Assembly (NCBI RefSeq): GCF_003991155.1
Contig: NZ_CP031293.1
From: Escherichia coli
GTDB lineage: Bacteria > Pseudomonadota > Gammaproteobacteria > Enterobacterales > Enterobacteriaceae
Strand: one strand, 5' to 3'
DNA: 64,000 nt
Made by a program: the position numbers. The number at the start of each line of letters is the position of its first letter. The first letter of the stretch is position 1. Shown here piece by piece: positions 1-3,000 of this stretch.

Positions 1-3000
1 TGCGTTCAGATATCACCGTGAATGAGATTGAACTGACGATGAACTCGTTAATTGTCCGCATGGGCCCACAACACTTTTCGGTTCTCTGGCATCAGACAGG
101 AGAAAGTGAGTGAGTTCCATGCTTGAGATTTTTATCCCGCTTTGCGCCTCCGATCCCATCCGTTGGCAGCACCGTACCACCGACGTGGAGCACGGCATCT
201 GGTCTGACGTTGACAACGAACAGCTCCAGCAATGGCTGCAAACTGATGCGATTCGACTCTACATTCCCGGCGAATGGATCAGCGTCTGGCAGGTTGAACT
301 GCCTGATGTCGCCCGCAAGCAGATACCGACTATTCTGCCCGCCTTACTGGAAGAAGAGCTGAACCAGGATATCGATGAACTGCATTTCGCCCCGTTGAAA
401 ATCGACCAGCAACTGGCAACCGTAGCAGTGATTCACCAACAGCATATGCGCAACATTGCGCAGTGGTTGCAGGCAAACGGCATCACCCGCGCTACCGTCG
501 CGCCGGACTGGATGTCCATTCCTTGTGGGTTTATGGCTGGCGATGCGCAACGGGTTATCTGCCGCATCGATGAATGCCGGGGATGGAGCGCCGGGCGGAC
601 GCTGGCCCCGGTCATGTTCCGCGCCCAGCTCAATGAGCAGGCGTCACCGATTTCGCTGACCGTAGTCGGAATCGCGCCGGAAGAGCTATCTGCATGGGTT
701 GGCCCAGACGCTGAACGTCTGACCGTTACGGCTCTGCCCGCCATTACCACTTATGGCGAACCGGAAGGGAACCTGCTAACTGGGCCGTGGCAGCCCCGCG
801 TCAGCTACCGAAAACAGTGGGCGCGCTGGCGGGTGATGATTCTGCCGATATTGCTGATTCTGGTTGCGCTGGCAGTGGAACGGGGCGTGACGTTATGGAG
901 TGTCAGCGAACAGGTGGCGCAAAGCCGCACCCAGGCGGAGAAACAGTTCTTAACGTTGTTCCCGGAGCAGAAGCGGATTGTGAATTTACGCTCTCAGGTG
1001 ACGATGGCGCTGAAAAAATATCGCCCACAGGCCGACGATACCCGGCTGCTCGCCGAGTTGTCAGCGATAGCCAGCACCCTGAAATCAGCGTCACTTTCCG
1101 ACATCGAGATGCGTGGTTTCACCTTTGATCAAAAACGCCAGACGCTCCACCTTCAGTTGCGGGCCGCGAACTTTGCCAGTTTCGACAAACTGCGTAGCGC
1201 ACTGGCGGCAGATTATGTTGTGCAACAGGACGCGTTACAGAAAGAGGGTGATGCGGTTTCCGGCGGCGTAACGTTGCGGAGGAAATAACATGTTACGCGA
1301 TAAATTTATTCACTATTTTCAGCAATGGCGTGAACGCCAGTTAAGCCGTGGCGAACACTGGCTGACACAACACCTGGCGGGGCGTTCTCCGCGTGAAAAG
1401 GGCATGTTACTGGCAGCGGTGGTGTTCCTGTTTAGCGTCGGATATTACGTCCTCATCTGGCAGCCGTTGAGCGAACGGATAGAACAACAGGAGACGATGT
1501 TGCAGCAGCTCGTGGCGATGAACGCGCGACTGAAGAGCACTGCGCCGGATATTGTTGCGGCGCGAAAATCCGGCACGACAACGCCAGCACAGGTATCGCG
1601 GGTCATCAGCGACAGCGCTTCCGCGCACTCGGTGGTCATCAAACGGATTGCCGAGCGTGGGGAGAATATTCAAGTCTGGATAGAACCTGTGGTGTTTAAT
1701 GACCTGCAGAACTGGTTAAAGGCACTGGATGAAAAATATGCGCTGCGGGTGATACAAATTGATGTCAGCGCAGGTGAGAAGCCTGGGATGGTGAATGTGC
1801 AGCGACTGGAATTTGGGCGGGGGTAGGTATTGCCATTTCCTTAACCCCACCTGATAACCCTTAGCCCAATGGTGAGTGCGGAACTGTCAAACCCGCTCAC
1901 CGGGCTGAGTTTCGATGTAGCAAGAATTATCTCCCTCCAGACCACCACGGAATATTCGGTAACACTGAAGGAACCTGTTTTTCACCATGTAGCCTTCGTT
2001 AATCGACACCTTTCTAAGACTGTAAAGATGCTTAAGTGTTTTGACACATTATGATTATTAATAGTTGTAATAAATCATTGAGTAACAATTGATAGGTCAA
2101 AACATATAGGATAATTCTTATGTGATCTGTATTTTGTGTAGCCTGGAAATTAGTAAAATTACTGGAGATAATCAGAAAGGGAATTTCAAATAAGCATAAT
2201 AATTTCCAGGGAAACTATTCGTCGATTTTAAGAAATGTCTGCTCAGGTATATCTACTGAGGGATAATGCTGGCTGTAACGCTGGTTAAAATAAATGCACA
2301 AAATAATCAAGGCGTATACTTTAATTGACGAAAATAATTACTCACGGAATTATTAATGGGACTTAAATAACACCGTTTAAATGTGATGTAAATCACAAAT
2401 GTGACTGTAAAGAGGGGGCTGTAGATATAAATAAGAAGTACATGAGTGAATTTTAAATAGGGAAATAGTTTCTCGGTGAACAATTTATTGGTAATCAATC
2501 GCGTGCGTTCTGGTTTGAAACAGATTGCAGGTATTGTTACGCATAAAATCCATAGGGGGTATTATAATCAAGTAGTTAACAGTAACAACAAAAATAATTT
2601 CCTGAGAAATTAACTCTACATTCTAAAACGGCCAGTTTTCTGAAGTTACCAGAAGACCGAATACGTTCATGCCTGAAGAATGGATTAGAAGAAACGAGAC
2701 GGAAATAGATCTATTTATCCCTGCGGAAATAATTTCTGCTGAAATTTTTTGCGGCTATTAAAAAGGTCAAACCGTCTGAGTAAATTTTATCCAGTTACAA
2801 ATAAGCATTACCTCCAGTGTATTGGTAGCTGTTAAGCCAAGGGCGGTAGCGTACCTGAAGAGATTAGGATCACATCATCAAATGGCAAGAAGTGGATTTG
2901 AAGTCCAGAAAGTCACCGTAGAGGCATTATTTCTACGAGAAATACGAACACGCTTTGGTAAGTTCCGTCTGGGATATTTGTGGGCGATTCTCGAACCCTC

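Follow-up and report, generated by a model that had tools for sequence, protein, structure and literature searches.

Organization of the yghD-kpsM interval

We analyzed a 64,000-nt stretch of Escherichia coli DNA (hereafter the window), within which the last gene of a type II secretion operon is followed by the genes of a capsule (kps) cluster. The following genes and features delimit the interval between yghD and kpsM.

110-1288: gspL (ORF call and family search)
1290-1826, plus strand: yghD (gspM), last gene of the type II secretion operon (NF007274, 399.8 bits)
1862-1907, plus strand: strong hairpin just 3′ of yghD (RNA fold -23.6 kcal/mol, z = -3.45)
2866-2869, plus strand: Shine-Dalgarno AGGA, 12 nt 5′ of the kpsM ATG, read from the sequence
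2882-3658, plus strand: kpsM, region 3, ABC exporter (ORF call and family search)
3655-4323, plus strand: kpsT, region 3, ABC exporter (ORF call and family search)
4345-8357, plus strand: region 2, encoding a GalE-like epimerase, a 760-aa putative glycosyltransferase and a hexapeptide acetyltransferase (family search)
8839-10086, minus strand: kpsS, region 1
15815-16834, minus strand: kpsF, region 1

The ORF calls and family searches place the gap between yghD and kpsM at 1827-2881, exactly 1055 bp, in agreement with the spacing of about 1 kb and the long AT-rich kpsM leader that the initial annotation had described. The gap as a whole has a G+C content of 0.362; its first 125 bp reach 0.52, and the segment from 1952 to 2881 falls to 0.341. 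The corresponding values are 0.564 in gspLM and 0.485 across the entire window. The cluster has the group 2 layout, with gsp/yghD followed by kpsMT and region 2, and with region 1 (kpsFEDUCS) opposed to kpsMT. The kpsM and kpsT genes share their strand with the three biosynthesis genes of region 2, and neighboring genes either overlap or are 21-85 nt apart. Region 2 has a G+C content of 32%, and its first gene begins 21 nt after the kpsT stop codon. Together, kpsMT and region 2 form the kind of long cell-surface or extracellular operon that carries JUMPstart/ops elements. The kpsMT counterparts in the 99.9%-identical genome Combat2C1 are annotated as an ABC transporter permease and an ATP-binding protein.

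The K-12 chromosome is collinear through the yghD stop codon and diverges directly after it. The hairpin at 1862-1907 probably constitutes the 3′ end or terminator of the gsp operon, and would shield the kpsM promoter from upstream transcription. In the allele of JNE25, its stem (GGTGAGTG/CACTCACC) is retained, while the loop and flanks are unrelated. We also considered whether the island edge retains a pheV tRNA or an attachment site. ARAGORN found no tRNA in the window, and there is no pheV-like sequence past the yghD stop codon, where K-12 homology ends.

A full-length JUMPstart element with ops precedes kpsM

The initial annotation had pointed to a 12-nt ops-like sequence about 30 nt before the kpsM ATG. 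The sequence is present and its distance is 28 nt; it forms the 3′ end of a full-length JUMPstart match.

2815-2853, plus strand: JUMPstart element (Rfam RF01707, matched over model positions 1-38 of 38; 58.5 bits, gathering score 35)
2842-2853, plus strand: ops element GGCGGTAGCGTA, RfaH loading site by orthology, on the non-template strand for kpsM

The E-value of the covariance match is 2e-12 locally and 7e-11 when calculated over the whole window, which contains no other JUMPstart. It covers the 39-nt JUMPstart consensus ending in the ops core GGCGGTAG(nnTn), and lies on the same strand as kpsM, 5′ of the first gene. The bare motif GGCGGTAGnnT is not significant alone: the 64-kb window contains two matches where 0.31 are expected, and 6 of 100 shuffles reach two. 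The second match, at 56545, sits within a 3288-aa coding region, and coding-region matches of this class showed no RfaH binding in CFT073 (PMC9765446).

Across eight E. coli alleles, the ops-to-ATG distance is identical (28 nt in all eight) and JUMPstart is near-invariant, with two variable positions; ops itself differs solely at its tenth base (GCGTA/GCATA). We then scanned 100,044 species genomes with a JUMPstart pattern, which mainly recovered the JUMPstarts of other polysaccharide loci. The element adjoins kpsM at only six loci, three in Escherichia and three in Pantoea, and in the latter JUMPstart/ops lies 34-37 nt 5′ of the ATG and is preceded by an AT-rich stretch about 400-500 bp long.

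The element resembles the RF01707 modules of hly, rfa/waa, rfb/wzx, tra and cps, in that the full-length model is matched, GGCGGTAG is on the non-template strand, and the operon whose transcribed leader contains it is long, AT-rich, horizontally acquired, H-NS-bound and devoted to the cell surface. It differs from them in its final ops base, which is A here and commonly G elsewhere (GGCGGTAGCGTA versus GGCGGTAGCGTG), and in its placement, about 700 nt from the transcription start compared to 27-67 nt at wzx and rfa, and 28 nt from the start codon compared to about 600 nt at hly.

Promoter PR3 and the putative transcription start

The initial annotation could not pinpoint the promoter by eye and proposed promoter prediction, together with alignment to characterized kpsM leaders, to locate it. 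The prediction did not succeed: a consensus scan returned 4 hits, compared to 3.7 ± 2.2 in shuffles, and none at the position identified below as P1. This promoter has no -35 element, so a consensus scan is expected to miss it, and P1 is not singled out by sequence alone. Alignment placed it instead. The leader is 95.7% identical to that of K5 (Nissle) and 96.6% identical to that of K1 (EV36), with a range of 95.7-96.7% when 042 is included, and both the PR3 -10 and the start were located by these comparisons. The transcription start, protein binding and RfaH dependence are transferred from experiments at orthologous loci, in strains whose leaders are 85-97% identical over the full alignment. 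The 85% identity of the CFT073 leader reflects a 117-bp indel.

2130-2135, plus strand: PR3 (P1) -10 hexamer TATTTT, by alignment to K5 Nissle and 042
About 2141-2144, plus strand: putative PR3/P1 transcription start, by homology, giving a leader of about 738-741 nt
2009-2123: projected upstream H-NS footprint (-135 to -21 of PR3), from +1 = 2144 by homology
2284-2362: projected downstream H-NS footprint (+141 to +219), by homology

TAGGAT occupies the -35 position, consistent with the description of PR3 as a sigma-70 promoter with a -10 and without a -35 (review PMC8960920). The -10 block TGATCTGTATTTTGTGT is unchanged in all eight alleles, including the 79%-identical Esc11. In 042, the P1-null primer GATCTGTgTTTTGTGTAGC (‘-13G’) alters the A of the P1 -10 hexamer, and mutation of this -10 abolishes most activity (PMC12360894). 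Transposon insertions in the intergenic region 5′ of kpsM abolish the K1 capsule (PMC5654933).

Three estimates of the start can be compared. In K5, it was mapped 741 bp upstream of kpsM, with ops 28 bp upstream (reported second-hand in the review PMC8960920). The 1057-bp Nissle allele has no indel upstream of the start, and therefore the -741 position, which is Nissle intergenic position 317, maps to window position 2143. Both anchors of the 042 numbering (-13 = A2131 and +245 = base 2388) agree on +1 = 2144. The RNA-seq-predicted start of CFT073, 846 nt 5′ of the ATG in a 1173-bp allele, corresponds to 2154. The estimates spread by up to 13 nt (2141-2154). A kps start attributed in PMC9765446 to ‘ST131 5′ RACE’ was set aside, as the reference given is a hemolysin paper that is irrelevant to kps. 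The initial annotation had named a start downstream of ops as incompatible with its reading; by homology, P1 (about 2144) and the start of the second promoter P2, adjacent to the CRP site at 2382-2397, both lie upstream, and ops would follow P1 by about 700 nt, the P1 position being transferred from other strains.

The published H-NS footprints, when projected onto this allele, fall on its most AT-rich segments: G+C is 26% at 2009-2123, the lowest of the region, and 28% at 2284-2362. The footprint coordinates and the role of SlyA come from K5 data, second-hand via the review PMC8960920, where the downstream footprint is reported as required for silencing at 20 °C. By projection, H-NS and SlyA would bind around the start and confer thermoregulation on this allele. 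A cluster of substitutions relative to K5, K1 and 042 (2265-2360) lies within the projected downstream footprint, so quantitative regulation of this allele may differ.

A conserved CRP site with a P2-null base

2382-2397: CRP site TGTGATGTAAATCACA, centered 492.5 bp before the kpsM ATG; sole TGTGA-N6-TCACA in the window (0.04 expected)
2387-2392: embedded P2 -10 position, TGTAAA here compared to TATAAA in 042

The orthologous CRP site of EAEC 042 has been verified by ChIP-seq and EMSA (PMC12360894, 2025), and the site is thus not a new finding. The CRP half-sites, the center at -492.5 and the P1 -10 are identical here and in 042, and the half-sites are invariant across alleles, including the 79%-identical Esc11. 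The 6-bp spacer differs: TATAAA, the functional P2 -10 hexamer in 042, is TGTAAA here. In 042, the change ‘245G’ was engineered to inactivate P2 (PMC12360894), and G2388 of the present allele is its natural counterpart. Consequently, we predict that P2 is silent in this allele and that CRP still binds at 2382-2397. An Rfam match to CRISPR-DR17 (2388-2412; 20.7 bits, cut-off 42; E = 0.99) was rejected, as it is the CRP palindrome itself.

Leader alleles and repeated dyads

Of 5426 complete E. coli genomes, 1699 carry this intergenic region, and in every case yghD and kpsM flank it. A 117-bp indel divides the leaders: the additional sequence is present in 419 genomes (e.g. CFT073 and LF82) and absent from this allele. 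It occurs at a median of one place per genome and at most two, and its single occurrence in nearly all 419 genomes argues against a mobile or repetitive element; we accordingly rejected a dispersed repeat. We found that the junction of this indel coincides with one of several copies of a dyad, AATTTC-N4-GAAATT.

2201-2216: dyad copy 1 AATTTCCAGGGAAACT, one mismatch to AATTTC-N4-GAAATT
2596-2611: dyad copy 2 AATTTCCTGAGAAATT, perfect, at the junction of the 117-bp indel
2731-2746: dyad copy 3 AATTTCTGCTGAAATT, perfect, overlapping a terminator-like hairpin and T-run at 2723-2754

Each allele carries two to three perfect dyads with conserved arms and variable spacers. Copy 1 is perfect in Esc11 (AATTTCCACAGAAATT), where copy 3 keeps its arms with an altered spacer (CGGC), and insert-bearing alleles have a further dyad, AATTTCTTGCGAAATT, at the other end of the 117-bp insert. 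To our knowledge, none of the E. coli regulator sites that we considered (NagC/Mlc, LysR T-N11-A, SlyA, Fur and FNR) fits the dyad.

Probable RfaH-dependent read-through and the proposed mechanism

The initial annotation had read the ops-bearing leader as a device for RfaH-dependent read-through from region 3 into region 2, which matches the published model and is supported by data from orthologous loci. RfaH dependence has been shown at the K5 locus (PMC8960920). In CFT073, ChIP-seq shows sigma-70 peaking at the upstream start that had been predicted, and RfaH loads at the kps ops and stays on RNA polymerase through the operon; when rfaH is deleted, downstream RNA polymerase occupancy collapses (RfaH-dependent travelling ratio about 0.1; PMC9765446). 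By analogy, recruitment of RfaH at 2842-2853 and dependence of the distal genes on RfaH are predicted for the present locus. The rfaH gene itself is absent from the 64-kb window.

Very probably, the interval corresponds to the regulatory region of PR3 together with the 5′ untranslated leader in a group 2 capsule cluster of E. coli. Its coordinates, sequence identity, conservation and full JUMPstart match are established here. It shares with the K5/K1 PR3 (Stevens 1997; Xue 2009; PMC8960920) the position between yghD and kpsM, the -10 block about 741 bp upstream, a leader of about 740 nt, ops 28 nt 5′ of the ATG, and AT-rich patches at the H-NS footprints. The differences in the leader are only allelic: one or two single-base indels compared to K5, the substitutions at 2265-2360, G2388 in the P2 -10 position, and the lack of the 117-bp insert seen in CFT073, LF82 and others. 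The downstream, serotype-specific region 2 differs. PR3 and its leader are already known, having been characterized in K5, K1, CFT073 and EAEC 042, and the read-through interpretation adds nothing to that knowledge.

According to the mechanism carried over from these strains, sigma-70 RNA polymerase would start from the -10-only promoter TATTTT (2130-2135), with +1 at about 2141-2144. Two H-NS-bound AT-rich patches flanking the promoter would silence it at low temperature, and SlyA would remodel them at 37 °C. A leader of about 738 nt would then be transcribed, within which the CRP site (2382-2397) would lower expression at high cAMP-CRP. About 700 nt past the start, the polymerase would pause at ops, where the exposed non-template strand could recruit RfaH. 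RfaH would displace NusG, suppress Rho- and H-NS/StpA-dependent termination, and help ribosome coupling at the kpsM start, 28 nt downstream of ops. As an outcome, transcription would continue through kpsMT and the very AT-rich region 2.

Alternative explanations

It is extremely improbable that the ops 12-mer arose by chance, with the 1 kb being AT-rich DNA at the junction of capsule island and core and the real kpsM promoter lying near the gene. The short motif does occur twice in the window, which is not significant, the interval is island-edge DNA by virtue of K-12 homology ending at the yghD stop codon, and the consensus promoter scan performed no better than shuffles. Yet a full 39-nt JUMPstart match (E = 7e-11 over the window) accompanies the 12-mer, at a fixed position and with near-invariant sequence in eight alleles, and it is kept in the Pantoea kpsM loci. 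The second motif, at 56545, is of the coding-region class that RfaH leaves unbound in CFT073, while the orthologous CFT073 site has an RfaH ChIP signal (PMC9765446). Moreover, the K5 start lies 741 bp upstream (PMC8960920), and the 042 P1 -10 mutation cuts most activity (PMC12360894). A leader that mainly encodes a small protein or a trans-acting small RNA is likewise very improbable. Four ORFs of 40-63 codons do lie inside the interval, and one of them (2307-2498, minus strand) is open in seven of the eight alleles, but all four are interrupted by stops or frameshifts in Esc11, those covered in JNE25 are broken there also, and ORF 2476-2613 straddles the 117-bp indel. Searching Rfam at E ≤ 1 found no credible RNA family besides JUMPstart, the fold stability of 2700-2900 equals that of shuffles (z = 0.0), and no RNA structure near ops is supported (z-scores of 0.0 and 0.3).

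A third reading complements the PR3 leader rather than excluding it. The dyads, acting with the hairpin and T-run at 2723-2754, could stop some transcripts before they reach ops, or could bind a dedicated regulator such as YbdO; the long untranslated region would then be an active control device, and not a target of H-NS silencing alone. We regard this as unlikely, even though several observations are in its favor. The scan identified a terminator-like site at 2723-2739 with a T-run, both perfect dyads of the 64-kb window lie in the leader along with two degenerate copies, and allele comparisons that include the 79%-identical one show conserved arms and variable spacers. The long untranslated region has been reported to moderate the transcription that reaches kpsM (PMC8960920), and YbdO binds the 300 bp 5′ of kpsM, in which dyads 2 and 3 lie. 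Against this, the stems are short and AU-rich (2715-2765 folds at -10.6 kcal/mol, z = -1.9), the T-run is broken in Esc11, CFT073 and LF82, and one terminator-like match is what shuffles yield (0.8 ± 0.8). The dyads may be copies of a single duplicated module (families D1-D3), and neither the Pantoea leaders nor the kpsF side of the window contains them. Nor does the dyad, with its even spacing, match the classical LysR T-N11-A box.

Implications for capsule regulation

Among the virulence factors of extraintestinal E. coli, the capsule is a major one, and several controls meet at the PR3 leader: H-NS/SlyA for temperature, CRP for nutrition, Fur/FNR for iron and oxygen, and RfaH for elongation. 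The region contains no unknown gene or RNA family, and the value of the present analysis is one of annotation, with the promoter, start, CRP site and JUMPstart/ops assigned to exact coordinates.

The allelic differences raise the tentative and, taken jointly, rather doubtful proposal that capsule regulation varies among lineages. About one quarter of kps-positive complete genomes, this one included, are of the G2388 type and would probably be without P2, and about one quarter have the extra 117 bp. The dyads bounding the indel might then be a regulator site, with YbdO as a candidate, or RNA hairpins that meter transcription to ops. The P2-null base, the 117-bp indel and the dyads offer minor leads for comparing capsule expression across lineages.

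The kpsM upstream region is the region 3 promoter

At its left end the window passes from a type II secretion operon into a group 2 capsule cluster, and the genes are arranged as follows.

110-1288, gspL
1290-1826, yghD/gspM
2882-3658, kpsM
3655-4323, kpsT
4345-8357, serotype region, three genes after kpsT: a GalE-like epimerase, a 760-aa putative glycosyltransferase and a hexapeptide acetyltransferase
8839-10086 to 15815-16834, opposite strand, region 1, from kpsS to kpsF

The gap between yghD and kpsM is 1055 bp, and its coordinates (1827-2881) match those of the initial annotation exactly. 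The annotation had described about 1 kb of AT-rich sequence between gspM and kpsM, which is borne out: G+C is 52% over the first 125 bp and 34% over the remainder. K-12 lacks the capsule island; its sequence is collinear with the window as far as the yghD stop codon and is unrelated directly past it. We therefore assign the entire kilobase to the capsule island on this comparison. Of 5426 complete E. coli genomes, 1699 carry the region (1594 with at least 80% of it covered), and yghD and kpsM flanked it in every case inspected. The window itself is 99.9% identical to strain Combat2C1.

The region is the PR3 (region 3 promoter) of the literature, a textbook regulatory region that has been studied experimentally for more than 25 years. 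We found no tRNA or pheV remnant in the window or past the yghD stop codon, no conserved small ORF in the leader, and no Rfam family in the region besides JUMPstart. A strong hairpin directly after the yghD stop codon (1862-1907, −23.6 kcal/mol, z = −3.45) has no T-run, and its stem is kept in a divergent allele with an unrelated loop and flanks. It is probably the 3′ end or terminator of the gsp operon, most simply its 3′ end.

The ops sequence ends a complete JUMPstart element

The initial annotation had also placed an ops-like sequence about 30 nt before the kpsM ATG, and this placement holds. The elements of the control region are listed below, with H-NS footprints projected from +1 = 2144.

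2009-2123, projected upstream H-NS footprint, 26% G+C
2130-2135, −10 hexamer TATTTT of P1, the main kpsM promoter, located from the EAEC 042 primers and allele alignment
2201-2216, dyad copy with one mismatch
2284-2362, projected downstream H-NS footprint, 28% G+C
2336-2351, dyad copy with two mismatches
2382-2397, perfect CRP site TGTGA-N6-TCACA, the single match in the window (0.04 expected)
2596-2611 and 2731-2746, perfect dyad copies, the only ones in 64 kb
2842-2853, kpsM coding strand, ops sequence GGCGGTAGCGTA, 28 nt before the ATG

An AGGA Shine-Dalgarno sequence lies 12 nt past the end of ops. The bare ops motif is statistically unremarkable, with 2 matches in the window compared to 0.31 expected and 6 of 100 shuffles reaching 2. 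It is nevertheless the end of a full JUMPstart element (2815-2853; 58.5 bits against an Rfam cut-off of 35), the sole JUMPstart in 64 kb. RNA folding around ops gave no significant structure.

The second ops-like match, GGCGGTAGCCT (56545-56555, + strand), lies within an ORF (50788-60654) that encodes a 3288-aa filamentous-haemagglutinin-type (TpsA-like) protein and is preceded by a 590-aa ORF. This match is probably inert, because intragenic ops-like sites in CFT073 are not bound by RfaH.

The JUMPstart core, scanned against a single genome for each species, matched 59 loci, most of them in other polysaccharide clusters. JUMPstart was adjacent to kpsM in six (three Escherichia, three Pantoea), all with ops 28-37 nt before the ATG. 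Upstream sequence is AT-rich in the three Pantoea loci as well; they have neither the CRP site nor the dyads. In E. coli EC31, a group 3-type capsule strain (locus L005, 6001-6702), the first 429 bp of the leader are retained, P1 included. They are fused to JUMPstart/ops and to the decayed remains of kpsM, which is frameshifted and has ATT in place of its ATG. This arrangement looks like the leftover of a past group 2 locus.

Transcription start and regulation of P1

The K5 start site lies 741 bp upstream of kpsM, at a sigma-70 promoter with a −10 and no −35 element (PMC8960920). Through the K5 allele of Nissle 1917, whose leader is 1057 bp, this start projects to window position 2143, since no indel separates that allele from the window's upstream of it. 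In EAEC 042, a 2025 study introduced mutations into the P1 −10 at '-13' and into that of P2, a weak second promoter at the CRP site, at '+245' (PMC12360894). Its primers show that '-13' is the A in TATTTT and that '+245' is the A in TATAAA within the CRP site. The 042 allele equals the window's in length, with the checked landmarks (P1 block, CRP site, ops) at identical positions, and only +1 at intergenic position 318 (window 2144) satisfies both numberings. For CFT073, whose allele is 1173 bp long, RNA-seq predicts a start 846 nt ahead of the ATG, which projects to 2154. By homology, we place the start of this promoter, which the initial annotation had not located, at about 2141-2144, with a predicted leader of about 738 nt. 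All eight aligned alleles, including one only 79% identical overall, have the block TGATCTGTATTTTGTGT unchanged, and the −35 position reads TAGGAT, in agreement with the reported absence of a −35.

At PR3, H-NS footprints span −135 to −21 and +141 to +219, in a complex that SlyA remodels; Fur and FNR are likewise active, and the long UTR modulates the amount of transcription arriving at kpsM (PMC8960920). The two projected footprints coincide with the two most AT-rich patches. Inside the downstream one, positions 2265-2360 carry about 15 clustered substitutions compared to the K5, K1 and 042 alleles, for example GATAATGCTGGCTGTAACGCTGG versus GATGGTGTTGGTTGTAACACTGG. Because this variant is shared with the JNE25 allele, it suggests that the window's leader is mosaic or recombinant.

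RfaH-dependent read-through, as the initial annotation proposed, is supported by analogy with the CFT073 orthologue. By ChIP-seq in that strain, sigma-70 peaks at the upstream start and RfaH loads at the kps ops, and deleting rfaH removes downstream RNA polymerase (RfaH-dependent travelling ratio about 0.1; PMC9765446). The projected start lies upstream of ops, not downstream. Transposon insertions in the intergenic region upstream of kpsM abolish the K1 capsule (PMC5654933). The mechanism's coordinates, conservation and JUMPstart match come from the window; its start site, H-NS, SlyA and CRP binding and RfaH dependence would carry over from 85-97%-identical orthologous leaders.

A natural, predicted P2-null base in the CRP site

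In EAEC 042, binding of CRP to a site centred at −492.5 was demonstrated in vivo as well as in vitro. CRP has a moderating effect on P1 and strongly represses P2, whose −10, TATAAA, sits between the CRP half-sites (PMC12360894). The window's site has the identical centre; as a new lead it was rejected, having been published in 2025. In the window the site reads TGTGATGTAAATCACA, and the P2 −10 is TGTAAA, not TATAAA. Because G2388, its second position, equals the engineered P2-killing substitution '245G' of 042, we predict that P2 is inactive here with the CRP half-sites intact. Using 31-mers built so that any 28-base seed spans the polymorphic base, we found the G haplotype in 429 and the A haplotype in 767 complete genomes, among about 1,700 with the leader. 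CFT073 and LF82 also carry G, and Esc11 and E69 have other spacers. This naturally occurring, predicted P2-null base is a slightly new point.

A leader indel bounded by a repeated dyad

The leaders of CFT073, LF82, JNE25 and Esc11 contain a 117-bp segment that the window, K5, K1 and 042 lack. Altogether 419 genomes have it, almost all in a single place (median 1, maximum 2). The window's junction (about 2589-2612) lies within the kpsM 5′ UTR, and leader length consequently varies among lineages (about 740 versus about 857 nt). We consider this polymorphism slightly new. Direct repeats of about 22 bp (AAATAATTTCyTGmGAAATTA) border the indel, as do copies of the dyad AATTTC-N4-GAAATT.

With up to two mismatches, the dyad has 10 matches in 64 kb; 4.4 are expected, and none of the shuffles gave as many as 10. 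Its arms are constant across alleles while the 4-nt spacers vary (CTGA/CTGG, TGCT/CGGC, TTGC/CCGC, CAGG/CACA), a conservation that is also slightly new. Searches on the kpsF side of the window and in the Pantoea kpsM leaders found no copy. No known regulator could be matched to the dyad. The LysR-type activator YbdO binds the 300 bp upstream of kpsM (PMC9141747), which include two dyads; a link between them is speculative. The dyad at 2731-2746 overlaps a weak hairpin and T-run, terminator-like in our scan.

Serotype region and Ag43 locus

Region 2 (4345-8357) has only three genes, including a hexapeptide O-acetyltransferase. This content would fit a simple O-acetylated hexosamine-Kdo polymer, and presumably resembles that of K14. 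The galE-like gene is intact in the window, annotated as frameshifted in the 99.9%-identical Combat2C1, and has an internal stop in Esc11. Elsewhere, Rfam matches an IS102 RNA (29333-29569, − strand; 74.4 bits, cut-off 46) directly upstream of the Ag43 autotransporter gene (26192-29389, minus strand).
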